From assembly GCF_041886205.1 (NCBI RefSeq), contig NZ_CP169029.1: a DNA stretch of 64,000 nt, one strand, 5' to 3'. This DNA is from Escherichia coli. GTDB taxonomy: Bacteria; Pseudomonadota; Gammaproteobacteria; Enterobacterales; Enterobacteriaceae. This document shows, in pieces, positions 1 to 39,426 of this stretch. Each line of letters opens with the position of its first letter. The stretch's first letter is position 1. A model generated the notes under the pieces. That model saw only the letters and a list, made by a program, of their open reading frames with translations. It did no database searches and was not told the origin of the DNA. The position numbers and the translations under genes were made by a program.

Positions 1-1
1 A

Positions 2-868
2 GTGCTGATCGCGGTGATTCTGGGCATGGTTGTTTATGGCGTATTTGAAGGTGAAGGCGCTGGTACGCTGGCGAGCACTCGTCCATTCTGGTCTGGCGAT
101 GCGCATGTTATCCCGATGATTACCGGGGCGACAATCCTATGCTTCTCCTTTACCGGCTTTGACGGCATCAGCAACCTGTCGGAAGAAACCAAAGATGCAG
201 AGCGCGTGATCCCGCGTGCGATTTTCCTGACCGCGCTGATTGGCGGCATGATCTTCATCTTTGCAACTTACTTCCTGCAGCTGTACTTCCCGGATATCTC
301 TCGCTTTAAAGATCCGGATGCGTCACAGCCTGAAATCATGCTGTATGTTGCAGGTAAAGCATTCCAGGTTGGTGCGCTGATCTTCTCCACCATTACCGTA
401 CTGGCGTCCGGTATGGCGGCGCATGCAGGCGTTGCGCGTCTGATGTACGTAATGGGGCGTGACGGCGTATTCCCGAAAAGCTTCTTCGGTTATGTACACC
501 CGAAATGGCGTACTCCGGCGATGAACATCATCCTGGTTGGCGCGATTGCCTTGCTGGCAATCAACTTCGACCTGGTAATGGCTACAGCGCTGATCAACTT
601 TGGTGCGTTGGTGGCGTTCACCTTCGTTAACCTGTCGGTCATCTCGCAGTTCTGGATCCGTGAGAAGCGTAACAAGACGCTGAAAGATCACTTCCAGTAT
701 CTGTTCCTGCCGATGTGTGGTGCGCTGACCGTTGGTGCGCTGTGGGTTAACCTGGAAGAAAGCTCAATGGTTCTGGGTCTGATCTGGGCGGCTATCGGTC
801 TGATTTACCTGGCTTGCGTCACCAAGAGTTTCCGTAATCCGGTTCCGCAGTACGAAGACGTAGCGTAA
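2..868 (+). CDS. plaP: Putrescine importer PlaP (APC-family permease), C-terminal part; 5' end lies outside the window
   Basis: ORF open from window start; polytopic membrane protein; synteny upstream of yeeE/yeeD; hairpin plus T-run after the stop. Confidence 0.8.
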
Positions 869-886
869 TCATCTTTTGTAATAATA

Positions 887-924
887 AACCGGAGTCGAAT
901 GAATATTGGGCTCCGGTTTTTTTA
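887..924 (+). terminator. Rho-independent terminator after plaP
   Basis: Stem CCGGAG/CTCCGG followed by a T7-8 run. Confidence 0.7.
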
Positions 925-1046
925 TTCTTTTTTATCGACATCCTCATTAATAACCATTTGTTCTAATTTAGAGAATTTGGTTATTGGTCTGCATTCCACC
1001 AGTCATGAATAATTTCCCTATTAACATTCATCTGGTTAATTAATTT

Positions 1047-2105
1047 ATGTTTTCAATGATATTAAGCGGGCTAATTTGTGGTGCTCTGCTGGGATTTGTC
1101 ATGCAGCGTGGGCGTTTTTGCCTGACAGGTGGTTTTCGCGATATGTATATCGCGAAAAATAATCGCATGTTTTACGCCTTGCTGATTGCAATTTCGGTAC
1201 AAAGCGTGGGGGTTTTTGCGTTAATTCAGGCGGGCCTACTGACTTACGAAGCCGGGGCGTTCCCGTGGCTTGGTACTGTTATAGGTGGGTATATCTTCGG
1301 GCTGGGAATTGTTCTGGCGGGTGGATGTGCCACCGGGACCTGGTATCGCGCGGGTGAGGGATTGATCGGCAGTTGGATCGCGCTTTTCACTTATATGGTG
1401 ATGAGTGCGGTGATGCGTTCTCCACATGTCAGTGGTTTAAATCAAACCTTGCAGCACTACAGTACTGAACATAACTCCATTGCCGAGACGTTTAATCTGT
1501 CTGTGTGGCCGTTGATTGCCGTTTTGCTGGTGATAACTTTCTGGGTGGTGATGAAAGAGTTGAAGAAGCCAAAACTCAAAGTCGCGACCTTACCGCCGCG
1601 CCGAACCGGGATCGCTCATATTCTGTTTGAAAAACGCTGGCATCCCTTTGTCACTGCTGTACTCATCGGTTTGATTGCGCTTTTAGCCTGGCCCCTGAGT
1701 GAAGCAACCGGACGCATGTTTGGGTTAGGAATCACTTCCCCAACGGCCAATATTCTGCAATTTCTGGTCGCGGGTGACGTGAAATACATTAACTGGGGCG
1801 TTTTCCTGGTGTTAGGGATCTTCGTGGGGTCATTTATTGCAGCCAAAGCGAGCCGTGAGTTCCGCGTTCGCGCAGCTGATGCACAAACAACATTACGTAG
1901 CGGGTTAGGTGGTGTACTGATGGGCTTCGGTGCCAGTATTGCAGGTGGTTGCTCTATCGGTAATGGACTGGTTATGACTGCAATGATGACCTGGCAGGGC
2001 TGGATTGACCTTGTATTTATGATTCTCGGAGTCTGGACTGCGTCCTGGCTTGTGTATGTTCGACCGCAGCGTAAGGCGCGACTGGCAACTGCTGCGGCAA
2101 ATTAA
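1047..2105 (+). CDS. yeeE: Thiosulfate transporter YeeE/TsuA (inner membrane)
   Basis: 352-aa polytopic membrane ORF immediately upstream of the TusA-like yeeD; length matches K-12 YeeE. Confidence 0.9.
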   Translation: MFSMILSGLICGALLGFVMQRGRFCLTGGFRDMYIAKNNRMFYALLIAISVQSVGVFALIQAGLLTYEAGAFPWLGTVIGGYIFGLGIVLAGGCATGTWYRAGEGLIGSWIALFTYMVMSAVMRSPHVSGLNQTLQHYSTEHNSIAETFNLSVWPLIAVLLVITFWVVMKELKKPKLKVATLPPRRTGIAHILFEKRWHPFVTAVLIGLIALLAWPLSEATGRMFGLGITSPTANILQFLVAGDVKYINWGVFLVLGIFVGSFIAAKASREFRVRAADAQTTLRSGLGGVLMGFGASIAGGCSIGNGLVMTAMMTWQGWIDLVFMILGVWTASWLVYVRPQRKARLATAAAN

Positions 2106-2118
2106 GTAAGGTGTAAAG

Positions 2119-2346
2119 ATGGCGATTAAAAAGCTGGATGTGGTGACGCAGGTCTGTCCGTTTCCACTCATAGAAGCAAAAGCAGCACTGGCAGGAATGG
2201 CCAGCGGCGATGAGTTGGTAATTGAGTTTGATTGCACCCAGGCAACAGAAGCAATCCCACAATGGGCGGCAGAAGAAGGACATGCCATCACCGATTATCA
2301 GCAGATTGGCGATGCTGCGTGGAGCATCACCGTTCAAAAAGCCTGA
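2119..2346 (+). CDS. yeeD: TusA-like sulfur carrier YeeD/TsuB
   Basis: 75 aa with CPxP motif (VCPFP), 14 nt after the yeeE stop. Confidence 0.9.
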   Translation: MAIKKLDVVTQVCPFPLIEAKAALAGMASGDELVIEFDCTQATEAIPQWAAEEGHAITDYQQIGDAAWSITVQKA

Positions 2347-2388
2347 CCCAACATTGTCCTCCGCCGTATCAGTGGCGGAGGCTTCAAA

Positions 2389-3816
2389 CTAGACGATCTC
2401 TTCCGCGTACTGCCAAAGCGCTTTTAACAGCGCCACTTTTTCTTTATCGTCGGCATACTGCTGCGCCAGCATCTGAATCTCTTCTGCATAGCCTTGTAAA
2501 AACTCGGGTGTGAATACCTGGCGGCGGTGCTCCAGCCAACGTTGCTGCTCGGCATAATCCAGCGTCCCCGGGAAGTTGCGCGCCCGATAATTGAACAACA
2601 GCTTTTCAATCCGTTTATCAACAAAAGTGATATCCAGTGCCGGTAAATTACGCGGCTCGGTTTCCAGCACAATTTTCATTGCTGCACGATCGGCGTCACT
2701 GAAAAAGCCGTTATAAAGCTGTGCATCCACGTTATCTGAAGGCGTAAACGGTTCGGCTTCCGCGAATATCGCCACCACTTTTTCGCGCACTTGCGGATTT
2801 TCACGCAGAATTTTCAGGTTATTGAGGCAATGCTGACGATTAATTCCCAGTCGGTCGGCATCTTCCGGGCGTAGCGTATTCGCCTGGGCCAGCACCGGAC
2901 ATTTATTGATATGCACCAGCTTAACCGGAACGGCGGCGTTATCGCCAAGATCGGTTTTTGCGGTATATAAACGCTCGCGCAATGTGTCGCTATCCAGTTC
3001 CAGTAATGGCGAAATGTCTCCTGCCAAATCCACCATAATTACGGCATTGCGATTTTCAGGATGCCACGCCAGCGGTGCCACCCAGCTGGTATTGCCGCGC
3101 CATGCCCCAAACATTCCGGAAACGTGCACCAGGGGTTTCATCTGCGGAACATCAATCAACGCCATCAGTTTGTGTTTATTACGATGGGTAAAGAGATATT
3201 CAAACAGGCGTGGCTGACGCGTTTTTACCAGTTTCGCCATCGCAATAGTGGCGTACACATCAGCCATCGCATCGTGGGCGTTGCTATGTTCAATTCCATT
3301 CGCTTTGGTTAAATGCTCAAGGCGAAAGCTCGGTAGACCGTCATCATTTTCAGGCCAGTTTATTCCTTCCGGGCGCAGGGCATAACAGGCACGCATAACA
3401 TCCAGTAAATCCCAGCGCGAGTTATCATGCTGCCAGCTCCAGGCGTAAGGATCGTAGAAATTACGATAAAAAACGTTGCGTGTGACTTCGTCGTCGAAAC
3501 GCACATTGTTGTAGCCCAGAATACAGGTCTTCGGTACGTTAAAAAGCGAGTGAATACGGGCGGCAAACGCGGCTTCGTTTTCTCCTTTCGCCCGTGCTTC
3601 CTGCGGGGTAATACCGGTAATTAATACTGCTCCAGGCTGGGGCAAATAGTCATCCGCGGGCTTGCAGTAAAAGACTTCGGGTTCGCCGATGACATTGAAT
3701 TCGTTATCAGTGCGAATGGCTGCGAACTGTGCAGGGCGATCTAACGCGGGGTGCGTTCCAAAGGTTTCGTAATCGTGAAACAAAAAGGTAGATTGTTGCT
3801 TACCGTCATTCATCAT
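2389..3816 (-). CDS. sbcB: Exodeoxyribonuclease I
   Basis: Protein from the internal ATG begins MMNDGKQQSTFLFHDYETFG (475 aa); the track ORF has a 16-codon GTG extension. Confidence 0.92.
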   Translation of the reverse strand: MMNDGKQQSTFLFHDYETFGTHPALDRPAQFAAIRTDNEFNVIGEPEVFYCKPADDYLPQPGAVLITGITPQEARAKGENEAAFAARIHSLFNVPKTCILGYNNVRFDDEVTRNVFYRNFYDPYAWSWQHDNSRWDLLDVMRACYALRPEGINWPENDDGLPSFRLEHLTKANGIEHSNAHDAMADVYATIAMAKLVKTRQPRLFEYLFTHRNKHKLMALIDVPQMKPLVHVSGMFGAWRGNTSWVAPLAWHPENRNAVIMVDLAGDISPLLELDSDTLRERLYTAKTDLGDNAAVPVKLVHINKCPVLAQANTLRPEDADRLGINRQHCLNNLKILRENPQVREKVVAIFAEAEPFTPSDNVDAQLYNGFFSDADRAAMKIVLETEPRNLPALDITFVDKRIEKLLFNYRARNFPGTLDYAEQQRWLEHRRQVFTPEFLQGYAEEIQMLAQQYADDKEKVALLKALWQYAEEIV

Positions 3817-4024
3817 TAGGTTAAATCCGTTATTTCTGCTGTCTGCCAGAGTATCAAATATCACCGTGCTAATCAGCTTTAGCGCGACAATTTGGCAGCG
3901 AGTGACAACAGATCATGTCAGATAAAAATGAGATAGTAGTCACATTTTCTTGCACTTTATTCCAGCCAGTTCATAAGTATTTCCGTAAAAAGAACAGCTA
4001 TTTGAAACACCTGAGGGTTTGCTG

Positions 4025-5191
4025 TTGAAACGCCGTCTTATTATTGCTGCTTCTTTGTTCGTTTTTAATTTATCGTCTGGTTTTGCGGCGGAAAACATTC
4101 CTTTTTCACCTCAGCCTCCAGAGATTCATGCCGGGTCCTGGGTATTGATGGATTACACCACCGGTCAGATTCTCACCGCGGGTAATGAGCATCAACAGCG
4201 CAATCCCGCCAGCCTGACAAAGCTGATGACGGGCTATGTCGTGGATCGCGCTATCGATAGTCATCGCATTACGCCAGACGATATTGTCACCGTGGGGCGT
4301 GATGCGTGGGCGAAAGATAATCCGGTGTTTGTCGGTTCTTCACTGATGTTTTTGAAAGAGGGCGATCGCGTATCGGTACGTGATTTAAGCCGAGGTTTAA
4401 TTGTGGATTCCGGAAATGACGCGTGTGTTGCTCTGGCTGACTATATTGCCGGTGGGCAACGGCAGTTTGTTGAAATGATGAACAACTATGCCGAGAAGCT
4501 GCATCTCAAGGATACGCATTTTGAAACAGTGCATGGTCTGGATGCACCTGGCCAGCATAGCTCGGCTTATGATTTAGCTGTGCTTTCTCGCGCTATCATC
4601 CACGGCGAGCCCGAGTTTTATCATATGTACAGTGAGAAAAGTCTCACCTGGAACGGTATCACCCAGCAAAACCGTAACGGATTATTGTGGGATAAAACCA
4701 TGAATGTTGACGGCCTGAAAACGGGTCATACTTCTGGTGCCGGGTTTAATCTCATTGCTTCGGCTGTAGATGGGCAGCATCGTCTCATTGCAGTGATAAT
4801 GGGGGCTGACAGTGCAAAAGGTCGTGAGGAAGAGGCAAGAAAATTACTGCGTTGGGGGCAACAAAACTTTACTACGGTGCAAATTTTGCACCGTGGGAAA
4901 AAGGTCGGAACGGAACGCATCTGGTATGGCGATAAAGAAAATATCGACCTGGGAACGGAACAAGAGTTCTGGATGGTGCTACCGAAAGCCGAAATTCCAC
5001 ATATCAAAGCCAAATATACCCTTGATGGTAAAGAGCTCACCGCGCCAATTAGCGCCCATCAGCGGGTAGGGGAAATTGAACTTTACGACCGTGATAAACA
5101 GGTGGCGCACTGGCCGCTGGTTACCCTGGAATCTGTCGGGGAAGGCAGCATGTTTTCTCGCCTGAGTGATTATTTCCACCATAAGGCCTGA
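4025..5191 (+). CDS. dacD: D-alanyl-D-alanine carboxypeptidase DacD (PBP6b)
   Basis: Signal peptide; SxxK, SGN and KTG motifs; probable TTG start giving 388 aa. Confidence 0.9.
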   Translation: MKRRLIIAASLFVFNLSSGFAAENIPFSPQPPEIHAGSWVLMDYTTGQILTAGNEHQQRNPASLTKLMTGYVVDRAIDSHRITPDDIVTVGRDAWAKDNPVFVGSSLMFLKEGDRVSVRDLSRGLIVDSGNDACVALADYIAGGQRQFVEMMNNYAEKLHLKDTHFETVHGLDAPGQHSSAYDLAVLSRAIIHGEPEFYHMYSEKSLTWNGITQQNRNGLLWDKTMNVDGLKTGHTSGAGFNLIASAVDGQHRLIAVIMGADSAKGREEEARKLLRWGQQNFTTVQILHRGKKVGTERIWYGDKENIDLGTEQEFWMVLPKAEIPHIKAKYTLDGKELTAPISAHQRVGEIELYDRDKQVAHWPLVTLESVGEGSMFSRLSDYFHHKA

Positions 5192-5274
5192 CCTTTCTTT
5201 GCAGCAGACTGGCAGGAGTGCGAGTCTGCTCGCATAATCAACACTCATTCCTTGTGGTTTTAATATTGCAACTA

Positions 5275-5294
5275 TACTGTATATAAAAACAGTA
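5275..5294 (+). promoter_or_regulatory. LexA box (SOS operator) upstream of sbmC
   Basis: TACTGTATATAAAAACAGTA, a perfect CTGT-N8-ACAG palindrome about 15 nt before the sbmC start. Confidence 0.8.
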
Positions 5295-5308
5295 TTAATG
5301 GAGGCGTC

Positions 5309-5782
5309 ATGAACTACGAGATTAAGCAGGAAGATAAACGTACCGTTGCAGGTTTCCATCTCGTTGGCCCGTGGGAGCAGACGGTAAAGAAAGGTTTTGA
5401 GCAGTTGATGATGTGGGTAGATAACAAAAATATTGTGCCGAAGGAGTGGGTTGCTGTCTATTACGACAATCCAGATGAAACACCCGCCGAAAAATTACGC
5501 TGCGACACCGTCGTGACGGTACCGAATAACTTTACGCTCCCCGAAAACAGTGAGGGCGTCATTCTGACAGAAATTTCAGGTGGTCAGTATGCGGTTGCGG
5601 TGGCTCGTGTAGTCGGTGATGATTTTGCTAAACCCTGGTATCAGTTCTTTAATAGCCTCTTGCAGGACAGTGCTTATGAAATGTTACCAAAGCCCTGCTT
5701 CGAGGTTTATTTGAACAATGGCGCGGAAGATGGGTACTGGGATATCGAAATGTATGTTGCGGTGCAGCCAAAACATCACTAA
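5309..5782 (+). CDS. sbmC: DNA gyrase inhibitor SbmC/GyrI
   Basis: 157 aa; preceded by GGAGG RBS and a LexA box. Confidence 0.9.
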
Positions 5783-5980
5783 TTCATCTCAGGGCGGTGT
5801 GTTAACGCGATGACCACTCTTTTTTTTGAAAGCGAAAAGAGTAAGATGCGCCTTTCAATTTTTTCGCTCCTGCCGGGAAATTACACTGTTCCCGGTTTGT
5901 CCGTCGGATAATTCAGAGGCGCGCCTTCTGGCCGACAGATGAGTTATGAGCGCTTTTAATCTTCATTACGGAGTTTCTGC

Positions 5981-7039
5981 GTGCGTGCCGATAAGTCATT
6001 AAGCCCGTTTGAAATCCGGGTATACCGCCATTACCGCATTGTGCATGGTACTCGGGTCGCGCTGGCATTCCTGCTCACTTTTCTCATTATCCGCCTGTTT
6101 ACTATCCCGGAAAGTACCTGGCCGCTGGTCACCATGGTGGTGATTATGGGGCCAATCTCGTTCTGGGGGAACGTTGTCCCTCGCGCATTCGAACGTATTG
6201 GCGGTACGGTGTTGGGGTCGATTTTAGGTCTTATCGCTCTGCAACTGGAGTTAATCTCGTTACCGCTGATGTTAGTCTGGTGCGCGGCGGCTATGTTTCT
6301 TTGCGGTTGGCTGGCGCTGGGCAAGAAACCGTATCAAGGTTTATTGATTGGGGTGACGCTGGCAATTGTTGTTGGTTCCCCGACAGGTGAAATTAATACG
6401 GCGTTATGGCGAAGCGGCGATGTGATCCTCGGCTCTTTACTGGCAATGTTGTTTACCGGTATCTGGCCACAACGGGCGTTCATCCACTGGCGCATTCAAC
6501 TGGCAAAAAGTCTGACCGAGTATAATCGGGTCTATCAATCTGCATTCTCACCGAACTTACTCGAACGCCCGCGTCTGGAAAGCCATCTACAAAAACTCCT
6601 GACCGATGCCGTGAAAATGCGTGGGCTGATTGCGCCCGCCAGCAAAGAAACCCGTATTCCAAAATCGATATATGAAGGTATCCAGACCATTAATCGCAAT
6701 CTGGTTTGTATGCTGGAGTTGCAAATCAATGCATACTGGGCCACGCGCCCCAGCCATTTCGTGTTATTGAACGCGCAAAAACTTCGTGATACCCAGCATA
6801 TGATGCAGCAAATACTGCTGAGCCTTGTTCATGCGCTGTACGAAGGTAATCCGCAGCCGGTTTTTGCCAATACGGAAAAATTGAACGATGCTGTGGAAGA
6901 GCTGCGTCAGTTGCTGAATAACCACCATGACCTGAAGGTTGTGGAAACACCAATCTATGGTTATGTGTGGCTGAACATGGAAACGGCACATCAGCTTGAG
7001 TTGCTATCGAATCTGATTTGCCGGGCCTTGCGCAAATAA
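5981..7039 (+). CDS. yeeA: Inner membrane protein YeeA (FUSC-like)
   Basis: 352-aa ORF with GTG start, hydrophobic N-terminal half; synteny. Confidence 0.85.
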   Translation: MRADKSLSPFEIRVYRHYRIVHGTRVALAFLLTFLIIRLFTIPESTWPLVTMVVIMGPISFWGNVVPRAFERIGGTVLGSILGLIALQLELISLPLMLVWCAAAMFLCGWLALGKKPYQGLLIGVTLAIVVGSPTGEINTALWRSGDVILGSLLAMLFTGIWPQRAFIHWRIQLAKSLTEYNRVYQSAFSPNLLERPRLESHLQKLLTDAVKMRGLIAPASKETRIPKSIYEGIQTINRNLVCMLELQINAYWATRPSHFVLLNAQKLRDTQHMMQQILLSLVHALYEGNPQPVFANTEKLNDAVEELRQLLNNHHDLKVVETPIYGYVWLNMETAHQLELLSNLICRALRK

Positions 7040-11982: not shown

Positions 11983-12722
11983 GTAAATTATTTTGGGCGA
12001 TGCTCTCATTTATTACGCGTCTGCCTGTACCGCGTCGCTGGTCCCAGGGACTGGATTTCGAGCATTATTCTCGCGGTATTATTACTTTTCCTTTGATTGG
12101 ATTATTGCTTGGCGCGATTAGCGGGCTGGTCTTCATGGTGCTGCAGGCATGGTGTGGCGCACCACTGGCGGCACTGTTTAGCGTACTTGTGCTGGTGCTG
12201 ATGACCGGGGGATTCCATCTGGACGGCCTCGCTGATACCTGTGATGGCGTATTTTCTGCACGTAGCCGCGATCGCATGTTGGAAATCATGCGTGATAGCC
12301 GTTTAGGCACCCACGGCGGTCTGGCATTGATTTTTGTGGTACTGGCAAAGATTCTGGTGTTAAGCGAGTTGGCTCTGCGTGGCGAATCGATCCTTGCATC
12401 GCTGGCGGCAGCATGTGCGGTCAGCCGCGGGACTGCCGCATTATTGATGTATCGTCATCGTTATGCGCGGGAAGAAGGGCTTGGCAATGTGTTCATTGGC
12501 AAAATTGATGGGCGACAAACCTGCGTCACACTCGGCTTAGCCGCTATTTTTGCTGCCGTATTATTGCCGGGTATGCATGGTGTGGCTGCTATGGTGGTGA
12601 CGATGGTGGCGATTTTCATCCTCGGTCAGCTTCTCAAACGTACGCTGGGCGGGCAAACGGGCGATACGCTGGGAGCAGCCATAGAGCTTGGTGAACTGGT
12701 CTTCCTGCTGGCACTGCTATAA
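11979..12722 (+). CDS. cobS: Cobalamin-5'-phosphate synthase
   Basis: 247-aa membrane protein from ATG overlapping the cobU stop (ATGA). Confidence 0.9.
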
Positions 12723-12733
12723 AGAGACGTGAG

Positions 12734-13813
12734 ATGCAAATACTTGCCGATTTACTGAATACGATCCCAGCCATCGATTCTACCGCTATGTCGCGTGCAC
12801 AACGGCATATTGACGGGTTACTCAAACCTGTTGGTAGCCTGGGAAAGCTGGAGGTGCTTGCCATACAACTGGCAGGAATGCCGGGGTTGAATGGCATACC
12901 GCATGTGGGCAAAAAAGCGGTACTGGTTATGTGTGCCGATCACGGCGTCTGGGAGGAAGGGGTCGCTATTTCTCCAAAAGAAGTGACAGCCATACAGGCT
13001 GAAAATATGACCCGTGGAACAACCGGCGTGTGTGTGCTGGCAGAACAAGCGGGCGCTAACGTCCACGTAATTGATGTTGGTATTGATACTGCTGAGCCTA
13101 TCCCCGGGCTTATCAACATGCATGTCGCACGAGGTAGCGGCAATATTGCTTCAGCTCCGGCAATGAGTCGCCGTCAGGCTGAAAAGTTGCTTTTGGACGT
13201 CATATGTTATACGCAGGAGCTGGCAAAAAACGGTGTCACGCTGTTTGGTGTAGGTGAACTGGGGATGGCAAACACGACACCGGCAGCAGCAATAGTCAGC
13301 ACAATCACTGGCCGGAATCCTGAAGAAGTGGTTGGGATTGGCGCAAACCTGCCGACAGATAAACTGGCTAATAAAATTGATGTTGTGCGTCGGGCGATTA
13401 CGTTGAATCAACCAAATCCTCAGGATGGTGTTGATGTCCTGGCAAAAGTGGGTGGATTTGATTTGGTCGGAATAGCTGGAGTGATGTTAGGTGCTGCTTC
13501 CTGCGGTTTACCCGTGTTGCTGGATGGATTTCTTTCTTATGCTGCTGCGCTCGCAGCCTGCCAGATGTCTCCTGCGATCAAACCGTATCTCATTCCTTCT
13601 CACCTGTCGGCAGAAAAAGGCGCGCGTATAGCGCTCTCGCATTTGGGGCTGGAGCCTTATCTCAATATGGAGATGCGTTTAGGTGAGGGGAGTGGCGCAG
13701 CTCTGGCGATGCCCATCATCGAAGCTGCCTGTGCGATATACAACAACATGGGCGAACTTGCTGCCAGTAATATTGTTCTACCGGGGAATACGACTTCTGA
13801 TTTGAACAGTTAA
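12734..13813 (+). CDS. cobT: Nicotinate-nucleotide--dimethylbenzimidazole phosphoribosyltransferase
   Basis: 359 aa; completes cobUST. Confidence 0.92.
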
Positions 13814-13877
13814 AAACGAAAAGTCTGATAAAAGCTATACTTAACGGATAGCTTTCGCGGCATAGGAAAGGGACATG

Positions 13878-14810
13878 ATGCGTCGTGTAAATATTCTTTG
13901 CTCATTTGCTCTGCTTTTTGCCAGCCATACTAGCCTGGCGGTAACTTATCCATTACCTCCAGAGGGTAGCCGTTTAGTGGGGCAGTCGTTTACTGTAACT
14001 GTTCCTGATCACAATACCCAGCCGCTGGAGACTTTTGCCGCACAATACGGGCAAGGGTTAAGTAACATGCTGGAAGCGAACCCGGGCGCTGATGTTTTTT
14101 TGCCGAAGTCTGGCTCGCAACTCACCATTCCGCAGCAACTGATTTTGCCCGACACTGTTCGTAAAGGGATTGTTGTTAACGTCGCTGAGATGCGTCTTTA
14201 TTACTACCCACCAGACAGTAATACTGTGGAAGTCTTTCCTATTGGTATCGGCCAGGCTGGGCGAGAAACCCCGCGTAACTGGGTGACTACCGTTGAACGT
14301 AAACAAGAAGCTCCAACCTGGACGCCAACGCCGAACACTCGGCGCGAATATGCGAAACGAGGGGAGAGTTTGCCCGCATTTGTTCCTGCGGGCCCCGATA
14401 ATCCCATGGGGCTGTACGCGATTTATATTGGCAGGTTGTATGCCATCCATGGTACCAATGCCAATTTTGGTATTGGGCTCCGGGTAAGTCAGGGCTGTAT
14501 TCGTCTGCGCAATGACGATATCAAATATCTGTTTGATAATGTTCCTGTTGGGACGCGTGTGCAAATTATCGACCAGCCAGTAAAATACACCACTGAACCA
14601 GATGGCTCGAACTGGCTGGAAGTTCATGAGCCGTTGTCGCGCAATCGTGCAGAATATGAGTCTGACCGAAAAGTGCCATTGCCGGTAACCCCATCTTTGC
14701 GGGCGTTTATCAACGGGCAAGAAGTTGATGTAAATCGCGCAAATGCTGCGTTGCAACGTCGATCGGGAATGCCTGTGCAAATTAGTTCTGGTTCAAGACA
14801 GATGTTTTAA
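13878..14810 (+). CDS. ldtA: L,D-transpeptidase LdtA (ErfK)
   Basis: Signal peptide; YkuD domain with catalytic HGT...SQGCIRL motif. Confidence 0.9.
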
Positions 14811-35283: not shown

Positions 35284-35359
35284 TGGCTCCTCTGACTGGA
35301 CTCGAACCAGTGACATACGGATTAACAGTCCGCCGTTCTACCGACTGAACTACAGAGGA
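35284..35359 (-). tRNA. asnT: tRNA-Asn (GUU)
   Basis: Identical 76-nt tRNA-Asn sequence. Confidence 0.95.
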
Positions 35360-36350: not shown

Positions 36351-36440
36351 GGAGAGATGCCGGAGCGGCTGAACGGACCGGTCTCGAAAACCGGAGTAGG
36401 GGCAACTCTACCGGGGGTTCAAATCCCCCTCTCTCCGCCA
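36351..36440 (+). tRNA. serU: tRNA-Ser (CGA)
   Basis: GGAGAGATGCCGGAGCGGCTGAACGGACCGGTCTCGAAAACCGG...CTCTCCGCCA; long variable arm, anticodon loop CUCGAAA. Confidence 0.93.
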
Positions 36441-37009
36441 CTTTATCAATGACTTATCTCCCGACTTCCCGCCTTGCTTTTCCTAAACAGAACAATCGTA
36501 GAATATTCTTGAAGGGTTAGATCGTCACTGTTTTCTGTTCGATACTGTGACATTCAGCACTTGATTCGCTATGGATCTGACAGGAAGCTTTCGAGCGAAA
36601 ATGTGCAGTTATTCAGTCGTTTTCTTATCGCTCACCATTATTCTTTTAGACATTCATCCTATGAAACTGCCGCAAAGTTGGTGGTGGGAACTGAAGTTGC
36701 GTAGAGAAGGGTTCAATAATTGAGTCAAAAAAGGAACGCGGCCGTCAGATTAAAGCCGCGGGACAAAGTCCATAATTTCCAAGAGTTGTTGAATTTCCCA
36801 GCTTTTTTGAAAGCCTTTGTATCACACTAACAAGTAAAAAAGGTTTAAATACCAAAATTAACCTGTATTTTTGATAAGTCTTACCATTGTACGATTTACA
36901 CAGTTTCTGCTCCTCCTTGTTGATAGTGGAAAGGGTGCATTGTGCACTTGCGTAAACATTTATGACGCGTTGATGTCCATGGTTCACATTTCCTTGTCAG
37001 GGGATCGAC

Positions 37010-37540
37010 TTATTTGCGGCGAGGCATCATTCGTAACAGAGTATTATCTTTCTGAATGTAGTGATGAAAGAGTGCTGCGCCAGCGTGAGCTGCGATTAAA
37101 AAGTAACCTATATTTGCCCAGGTTTCGTGAATATTTTTTATCAGTGCTTTAATTTCGCTGTTTGGGGTAACAAAGGGAGACACATTGAAACCAAGGAAAC
37201 TCCACGATTTTCCACTGTAAGCCATCAAAGCAATCCCCAGCAGAGGAAGTGCAAGGAAGGTTATATAAAGCATGATGTGCATTAGCGAAGCCGCTTTCAT
37301 TTGCCAGGCAGGTGGCGGTGGCACAATAGAAGGATCACTATAACGGTGTTTTATAATCAGGCGTGAAAACATTAACACCCAAACGAATATACCCGCATTG
37401 TAATGTGTTTCTCGCATCAGCAGATAAGTACTACTACCTTTAGGAAACCAGCCACGGAGTTCCATCGCGGCATAGGTTATTGCAACGAAAAGCAGCGTTA
37501 TCCAATGTAAATAAATTTGAGTTTTTGAGAATCGGTTCAT
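37010..37540 (-). CDS. yodB: Cytochrome b561 homolog YodB
   Basis: 176 aa from MNRFSKTQIYLHWITLL...; four-helix di-heme topology with conserved His. Confidence 0.85.
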   Translation of the reverse strand: MNRFSKTQIYLHWITLLFVAITYAAMELRGWFPKGSSTYLLMRETHYNAGIFVWVLMFSRLIIKHRYSDPSIVPPPPAWQMKAASLMHIMLYITFLALPLLGIALMAYSGKSWSFLGFNVSPFVTPNSEIKALIKNIHETWANIGYFLIAAHAGAALFHHYIQKDNTLLRMMPRRK

Positions 37541-37883
37541 TTTTGTAGCTCCTGTAATTTTTACAGTCAAGCTATCCCACGAACCTTAAAAATTCCTTAT
37601 ACAGATGTGGTTTTAAGAATTTGTTATTTAAAAAATTGATAGTGCACATTGTAACCAGCCAATATAAGCAATGGCGTGAGCACAGGTATCTTTCTCTGTT
37701 GGCCGTATTGTGTATGGAATCCGTTATTGGTTAACTCAATGCGGGTTAGCTTATTTAATATACAGACACGTCATAGTGATGAGCGTGTCTGTAGCTAGCT
37801 TGCGTTCAGTGGCGTTTGTGGATGGACCAGTGGTAGTTATGATGACTTACTAAAGCGGCATCGAGGCGTTATCATGAGAATAC

Positions 37884-38725: not shown

Positions 38726-38758
38726 AGGCCGGACAGGGCGCTCGCGCCGCATCCGGCA
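38726..38758. repeat. REP (repetitive extragenic palindrome) element
   Basis: GCCGGACAGGGCGCTCGCGCCGCATCCGGC, typical REP sequence. Confidence 0.7.
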
Positions 38759-38790
38759 GGGATAACGCGTACTTTGTCGGCAATATGAAG

Positions 38791-39426
38791 TTATACAGAT
38801 AATTTGTTGTGAACCTGCTTGCGTAACCGGTTAAAAAGGGAACGCAACTTCTTATACCGTAAGGCTAAAAGCAGTACAGCCAGCCCAGCGTAGATGAGCG
38901 GCTGCGGTGAAATAATCTTCACTGACCACAGATAATGTATTGGGGCCAGGATCGCGACAAGATAGACGAAATTATGCAACTGTTGCCAGTGCTTGCCGAG
39001 TTTTCGCTGCATCGCCTGGGTTGAAGTAAACGCTAAAGCAAGCAAAATAACCCAGCTGATAATTCCTAACGTTAAATAAGGCCGGGTAATTAACTCCTTG
39101 CCTAATAACGCCAGATTATTCACGCCCAGCTCCAGCAATGCGTAACTGGTTAAATGCAGTGTCGCCCAGGCAAAGCACCATAAGCCTAACAGGCGGCGAG
39201 TGCGTATCAATAACGGCTGTTTTGCGTAGCGTGCCAGAGGTGTGATTAACAAGGTCGCCAGCAAAAATTTCAGTGCAGTGCGACCGGTAAAATGCTGAAT
39301 ATCTTTCACCGGATCGGCACCCAGTCCACCGTGATTGATCGCCCAGACCAGCCAGAGAAACGGCAACAATCCGGCAAGATGCAGGCAAACTTTCAGCCAT
39401 GTCACCTGTTTTGCTGTCAGACGCAT
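38791..39426 (-). CDS. msrQ: Methionine sulfoxide reductase heme-binding subunit MsrQ (YedZ)
   Basis: 211-aa membrane protein directly downstream of msrP. Confidence 0.9.

Follow-up and report, generated by a model that had tools for sequence, protein, structure and literature searches.

The serU-yodB spacer, its neighbours and its conservation

The window analysed here is a 64,000-nucleotide stretch of Escherichia coli DNA (contig NZ_CP169029.1). It runs in reverse orientation to MG1655, whose ~2.04-Mb region it covers here, and an MG1655 coordinate equals 2079908 minus the window position. The genes follow one another in the order yeeJ(-), asnT(-), mtfA(-), serU(+), the spacer, yodB(-), zinT(-), and msrQ(-), and the features discussed below are collected in Table 1. 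An earlier note on this DNA had described a gap between the gene for tRNA-Ser(CGA) and yodB, and both the coordinates of this gap and its length of 569 bp are confirmed. No feature is annotated within the spacer in MG1655, and PGAP places none there in any of the sampled genomes. The window strain is near K-12 but not identical to it, with three spacer differences from MG1655, none of which falls in the terminator described below. Position 36825 is C in the window and T in all nine other E. coli spacers compared, and the best spacer identity in any complete genome is at most 99.8%.

Table 1. Features of the serU-yodB region, in window coordinates.
Feature	Position	Strand	Basis or detail
serU, tRNA-Ser(CGA)	36351-36440	+	ARAGORN; Rfam tRNA, 57 bits
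Spacer serU-yodB	36441-37009 (569 bp)		No gene annotated
serU 3' trailer, untranslated, ended by Rho	36441-36683	+	Published Rho termination region
Mechanical 50-aa ORF, not a gene	36571-36723	+	ORF list
Intrinsic (Rho-independent) terminator	36727-36760	-	Stem 36760-36754 with 36743-36737, then UUCCUUUUUU (36736-36727)
Probable yodB 3' untranslated region, 283 nt	36727-37009	-	yodB stop codon to terminator
Mechanical 80-aa GTG ORF, not a gene	36745-36987	-	ORF list
Variable segment (last 122 bp of the spacer, yodB, and the yodB-zinT gap)	36888-37883 (996 bp)		
yodB, cytochrome b561 homologue	37010-37540	-	ORF list; MG1655 annotation b1974

The spacer had been described as AT-rich, which holds insofar as its GC content (0.404) lies below that of the whole window (0.485), but the bias is only mild: 10.6% of all 569-bp intervals across the whole window reach an equal or higher AT content, and the flanking genes yodB (0.42) and zinT (0.39) are similarly low in GC.

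Of 5426 complete E. coli genomes, 5421 match the spacer, and 3064 carry it at full length. The first 447 bp (36441-36887) are single-copy in ~5420 of the 5426 genomes, and the distribution is patchy only for the last 122 bp, which travel with yodB and are absent from ~43% of complete E. coli genomes. In ST131, 222 bp replace the 996-bp variable segment, and the same layout is present in two other sampled genomes; the 222-bp segment occupies positions 3448-3669 of a compared locus; only the zinT terminator hairpin is recognisably common to both versions of the segment. Escherichia albertii has serU followed by 603 bp and zinT, with no yodB, and aligns with the yodB-less version; its spacer is partly conserved and lies in the same context. 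We infer that the yodB-less arrangement is the older, ancestral one. The spacer is composite: positions 36441-36887 are old Escherichia flank, and the last 122 bp come from the yodB-bearing segment. yodB is an accessory gene, and one boundary of its segment lies inside the spacer. In the literature, the presence or absence of yodB served as a clone marker in a paper on ST410, and the mention of yodB in PMC12363166 concerns a frameshift only.

Outside E. coli and E. albertii, serU and mtfA widely remain adjacent, and no match to the spacer was found in up to 3.8 kb beyond serU. At a locus of Escherichia sp. E1V33 (positions 1-3900), whose MtfA is 92% identical, a shiA-like gene and amn directly follow serU, with neither the spacer nor zinT, an arrangement that marks the 3' flank of serU as a rearrangement breakpoint between Escherichia lineages. 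Two further loci compared have no match to the spacer, yodB, or zinT near serU.

Transcription termination on the two strands

On the plus strand, published MG1655 data place a Rho termination region at 2043225(-), which corresponds to window position 36683(+) (Rho score 39, p = 2e-241; PMC7815308, supplementary file 2). Reads upstream and downstream of this position number 7705 and 24 in the untreated sample and 9053 and 1099 with bicyclomycin, and the region ranks among the strongest published (PMC7815308). The RNA that ends here is the 3' trailer of serU. Its first 60 nt (36441-36500) contain 19 C and 6 G (C/G 3.2) and are thus C-rich and G-poor like a rut site, and 197 of 200 shuffled sequences fold better than its first 120 nt (z = +2.0). 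The same end of the spacer is its best-conserved part, with three variable sites among 10 sequences in 36441-36570, and the first 130 bp share 84.5% identity with E. albertii. The C-rich stretch 36441-36500 is a predicted Rho-loading site.

On the minus strand, the earlier note had seen no convincing terminator hairpin, which proved to be wrong. The spacer holds a hairpin with a 7-bp GC stem (six G-C pairs and one G-U pair) and a 10-nt loop, directly followed by a U-tract. Its folding energy of -11.6 kcal/mol is moderately below that of shuffled sequences (z = -1.7; 13 of 200 shuffles are as good). Term-seq of MG1655 detected a dominant 3' end at 2043181(+), which is the last U of the tract at window position 36727(-) (Adams et al. 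2021, PMC7815308, supplementary file 1), and the sequence printed around this end is the hairpin of the spacer. The authors list this end for two of their three growth conditions, taken here by file order to be LB OD 2.0 and M63; it is missing from the LB OD 0.4 list, and they class it as "orphan" (PMC7815308). Our own consensus terminator scan had not listed this terminator, because its 10-nt loop is above the 8-nt limit of the scan; it was seen by eye and by folding.

Several observations connect the RNA that ends at 36727 with yodB. The RIL-seq interval named "yodB.serU.IGR" spans 2042810-2043160(+) and begins 89 nt within yodB, the curated Term-seq data include no 3' end at 2042xxx, just past the yodB stop codon (PMC7815308), and a consensus scan of the minus strand of 36727-37009 returned no promoter-like site. 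Together, these observations suggest that the minus-strand RNA is the 3' UTR of yodB and not a separate transcript.

The 124-bp block around the hairpin is present as a single copy of at least 95% identity in 5417 of 5426 complete E. coli genomes. Being single-copy, the block cannot be a repeated element or MITE, a candidate we had considered. The terminator sits in the old flank, outside the yodB segment, and is kept in strains without yodB; serving yodB can therefore be neither its only nor its original role. E. albertii, compared at locus positions 5109-5261 in window orientation, lacks ~100 bp of the spacer (about 36725-36826), the hairpin included. The copy of the spacer that is carried by phages (see below) stops at 36718, a few bases from the edge of this gap.

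We consider it very probable that the stretch is a normal spacer between the converging serU and yodB units, lying beside an attachment site that is unoccupied in this strain. The serU gene has no intrinsic terminator, and RNA polymerase continues ~240 nt beyond the tRNA. Rho would then probably load on the C-rich, unstructured, and untranslated first part of the trailer (36441-36500) and halt transcription near 36683, and the mature tRNA 3' end would be produced by processing. From the other side, transcription of yodB would run 283 nt past the stop codon to the GC hairpin and U-tract and end at 36727. The Rho-dependent and the intrinsic stop points (36683 and 36727) are 44 bp apart, so neither unit would read into the other gene. 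Both termination events have been demonstrated in published MG1655 data and are already in the literature for the two strands, and the sequence features, the conservation, the occupancy of the site, and the absence of coding or relic signals are observations of the present analysis.

Rho-dependent termination downstream of tRNA genes has a classic case in the tyrT operon. The serU trailer resembles the tyrT type in being long and untranslated, in the absence of an intrinsic terminator, and in read-through that rises when Rho is inhibited. It differs in having neither tandem repeats nor a trailer-encoded peptide, and its Rho-loading site is a predicted one. The spacer thus offers a worked account of a Rho-reliant tRNA gene and a neighbour with a long 3' UTR whose stops lie 44 bp apart, and it removes a false lead, in that a stretch without genes that follows a tRNA gene and leans towards AT is not necessarily an island scar.

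Association of the probable yodB 3' UTR with Hfq

The earlier note also proposed that the stretch might hold regulatory RNA. Both strands are transcribed and the yodB-sense RNA is found, weakly, on Hfq; nothing in the stretch matches a described RNA family. One reading takes the minus-strand RNA that stops at 36727 for a small RNA or sponge that binds Hfq, cut out of the yodB 3' UTR or made from a promoter of its own. This reading is compatible with the explanation given above, and we consider it unlikely. It draws on the intrinsic terminator with its U6 tract, on the 3' end detected in two of three growth conditions, and on RIL-seq. In the 2016 Hfq RIL-seq datasets, which list the U-tract of "yodB.serU.IGR" as 6 nt, this RNA takes second place in all of its 39 and 33 chimeric fragments, and the features of its single partner in exponential phase match the row of ompF. 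In RIL-seq under nitrogen starvation, ArcZ is reported as its chimera partner (85 fragments, odds ratio 2.1, p = 0.0017). Over the datasets, it has one or two partners and 33-90 chimeric fragments.

Against this stand the small-RNA scores of 0.010 and 0.046, which are under the authors' cut-off of 0.1. In the ArcZ chimeras, the yodB-serU RNA comes first, as a target would, and ArcZ is very abundant. The predicted pairing with ArcZ is no better than with shuffled sequence; the best duplex of a windowed search falls in the yodB coding region, and an unrestricted duplex search yielded unrealistic long-loop structures and was discarded. The RNA has no Rfam family and, as described above, no promoter-like site, its upstream 122 nt are missing together with yodB in ~43% of genomes, and E. 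albertii is without the hairpin. A literature search for a small RNA of yodB found nothing.

The comparison with CpxQ, SdhX, and MalH, which are Hfq-bound RNAs from 3' UTRs, points in both directions. Like them, the yodB RNA ends, at a mapped position, in a GC hairpin followed by a U6 tract and is recovered with Hfq, but, in contrast to them, it has no known processed short species, seed, or validated target, and its score is below the cut-off. RIL-seq shows that the yodB 3' UTR reaches Hfq; a regulatory role does not follow from this, and the yodB-serU RNA should not be filed as a small RNA. The more specific idea that the 283-nt RNA, or a piece of it, is an unannotated Hfq-bound regulatory RNA, one that ArcZ targets, that sponges ArcZ, or that regulates ompF, seems to us slightly less probable still. 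If true, it would mean an Hfq-bound regulatory RNA confined to the ~57% of E. coli genomes that have the yodB segment.

The serU attachment site, phage-borne copies of the spacer, and small ORFs

That tRNA-Ser genes serve as attachment sites of mobile elements, the starting point of the earlier note, is borne out at this locus, and serU is already known as such a site. Of 5426 complete E. coli genomes, 3855 have serU and the spacer joined directly, and in ~29% the junction is interrupted. In the interrupted genomes, the match usually resumes inside the tRNA (in 11 of the 12 listed in the sample), at 36379-36381, 36370, or 36427. The repeat that flanks the inserted elements is the 3' part of serU, from the anticodon loop (36379-36380) to the CCA, and comprises 61-62 nt. 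ST131 carries a 42.7-kb lambdoid prophage at serU, with an intact serU at one end and the 61-62-nt copy at the other. A tyrosine recombinase gene, which is frameshifted, starts 27 bp after serU in this prophage, and the order is serU, 27 bp, integrase gene, lambdoid prophage, phage arm, tRNA 3' copy, and spacer. ST131, AB66, and the LT-IIb toxin phage (GenBank phage SerU-LTIIb), which is likewise an occupant of serU, all have a 61-nt core of this repeat at the distal junction (attR).

Inserted-element variants are common, as a comparison of strains shows. Besides the elements of ST131 and the LT-IIb phage, UTME-3 carries another prophage at serU, truncated by an IS3 family element, AB66 has a serU element with a different arm, and the element of STIN_95 brings genes of conjugation type, for TraD and a type IV pilus, and has a 14-nt repeat of the tRNA end. 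Since such variants are common, the spacer does not have the uniform, island-free surroundings that the earlier note had named as the observation that would speak against its proposal. In published work, a Stx1d prophage was placed as "serU-(...)-yodB" (PMC9729726), and effector-carrying prophages occupy serU in O145:H28 (PMC7067040); PMC2669165, a candidate serU paper, was dropped, its text matching only "serum". For annotation, this means that serU is occupied in roughly three in ten complete E. coli genomes.

Some details of these loci are worth recording. In the STIN_95 element (locus 4616-6014), the integrase gene lies on the spacer side and the pilus genes are BfpA/PilV-like; judged by its gene content, the element may be an integrative conjugative element. 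In AB66 (locus 64-200), PGAP annotates a "tRNA-OTHER" of 137 nt that consists of a partial serU copy and foreign sequence; it looks like an annotation artefact, and ARAGORN finds no tRNA there. The tRNA-Asn gene of ST131 that is the counterpart of asnT (35284-35359 in the window) bears a yersiniabactin island with an integrase (ST131 locus 12441-13940). The two tRNA genes that flank mtfA are thus both occupied in ST131 and both empty in the window.

In the window, the last 25 nt of the tRNA occur once, even when three mismatches are allowed, which agrees with the earlier failure to see a repeat of the tRNA 3' end in the stretch. As the 3' part of the tRNA is single, the serU site is empty here. 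Both empty and occupied versions of serU occur in E. coli, and the window has the empty one. The site resembles the attB of other tyrosine-integrase elements in that, in other strains, repeats of the tRNA 3' part flank the element and an integrase gene is adjacent. Compared with the occupied sites, that of the window is empty, and its spacer is chromosomal flank and not part of an element.

The suggestion that the spacer, in whole or in part, is what a prophage or island once inserted at serU left behind on decaying has several circumstances on its side. The attachment site is a busy one, Escherichia lineages and other genera have different sequence immediately beyond serU, two versions of the region meet at 36887/36888 within a composite spacer, ~100 bp of the E. 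coli spacer are absent in E. albertii, the spacer, yodB, and zinT are all below the GC content of the window, and phage genomes contain 278 bp of the spacer. We nevertheless hold it to be very unlikely. The spacer has no partial tRNA repeat, shows no integrase, phage, or IS homology by DNA or by its ten longest six-frame pieces, and is single-copy, near-universal in E. coli, and partly common to E. albertii in the same context. A sensitive blastn search against phages and plasmids returned only copies that bear the chromosomal junction itself. For recent events, the relic reading is largely refuted.

The phage-borne copies deserve closer attention, as they might at first be taken for the source of the spacer. 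Spacer positions 1-278 are present in the phages ev099, mEp332, and PhiR70_1 at 96-97% identity. The integrase of ev099 is lambda Int, and the spacer-bearing phages are lambda-integrase phages of the lambda site; a prophage next to ybhB-bioA, at that site, has the same phage module. Their copies include the prophage-chromosome junction itself, consisting of a phage arm and the 3' part of the tRNA. The phage copy differs from every sampled host spacer at 9-12 of 278 positions, the deepest host-to-host difference being 12, and it is far closer to the E. coli host spacers than E. albertii is. The content of the junction and the host-level divergence together indicate that a phage lineage captured the spacer from the chromosome, not the reverse, and we rejected a phage origin of the spacer on the grounds of lambda Int, the lambda site, and the serU junction with phage arm and tRNA 3' part.

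This capture explains the extra spacer matches per genome and the small "plasmid" matches, and in annotation the 278 bp in lambda-type phages can give misleading second matches. On inspection, the "plasmid" matches were chromosome-sized records, large fragments, or 35-64-kb records with only the 278-bp piece, and we discarded them as evidence of a plasmid-borne spacer. The fossil serU junction (phage arm, 61-nt tRNA 3' part, and 278 bp of flank) lies between tail-fibre and AraC-family genes in ev099 (locus 3740-4278), mEp332, strain 214-4 (5662-6000), and O157 (5001-5271), and the AraC module is complete in 178 complete genomes. The arrangement recalls the specialised transduction of gal and bio by lambda, as lambda-integrase phages carry the serU junction and 278 bp between their tail-fibre and integrase genes. 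In contrast to lambda gal and bio, this piece of chromosome has become a fixed part of a phage lineage in circulation, beside an AraC-type regulator gene, and the attachment site it derives from is not the present site of the phage.

The stretch had also been called free of ORFs, which is not literally true, as mechanical ORFs of 50 and 80 aa exist, but neither shows coding constraint. That the spacer encodes an unannotated small protein in one of them is hardly credible. The core of the 50-aa ORF is hydrophobic, and 8 of the 10 sequences compared keep this ORF intact. In the comparison with B2 strains, however, it has 9 nonsynonymous and 0 synonymous differences, a stop codon interrupts its frame in AB66 and in the copy carried by phages, E. 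albertii has no start codon there, no Shine-Dalgarno sequence precedes it, and it lies within an RNA terminated by Rho, which implies that the RNA is untranslated. The 80-aa ORF crosses the 36887/36888 boundary between the two versions of the region and is therefore missing from genomes without yodB, and the few strain differences within it all alter the amino acid. Family matches are not credible for either ORF: the best match of the 50-aa ORF is a PHROG at E = 0.1, the 80-aa ORF has none in Pfam or PHROG, and none of the ten longest of 17 six-frame pieces of the spacer has a Pfam or PHROG match below E = 0.05. The absence of annotation at these positions in MG1655 agrees with this, and a normal intergenic spacer remains the best description of the stretch.

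An Rfam search at permissive thresholds gave only the tRNA and sub-threshold noise; a match to sX4, which overlaps the tRNA, was rejected at 25.6 bits against a cut-off of 70. Two further observations concern the neighbouring gaps. In the zinT-msrQ gap, Rfam matches naRNA4 below its threshold at positions 38727-38792 (+) (30.5 bits, E = 0.01), which may be a REP-type repeat. A second "orphan" Term-seq 3' end of MG1655, 2044735(+), corresponds to window position ~35173(-) and has a hairpin and U-tract (PMC7815308); it lies between asnT and yeeJ, downstream of asnT by ~110 nt.
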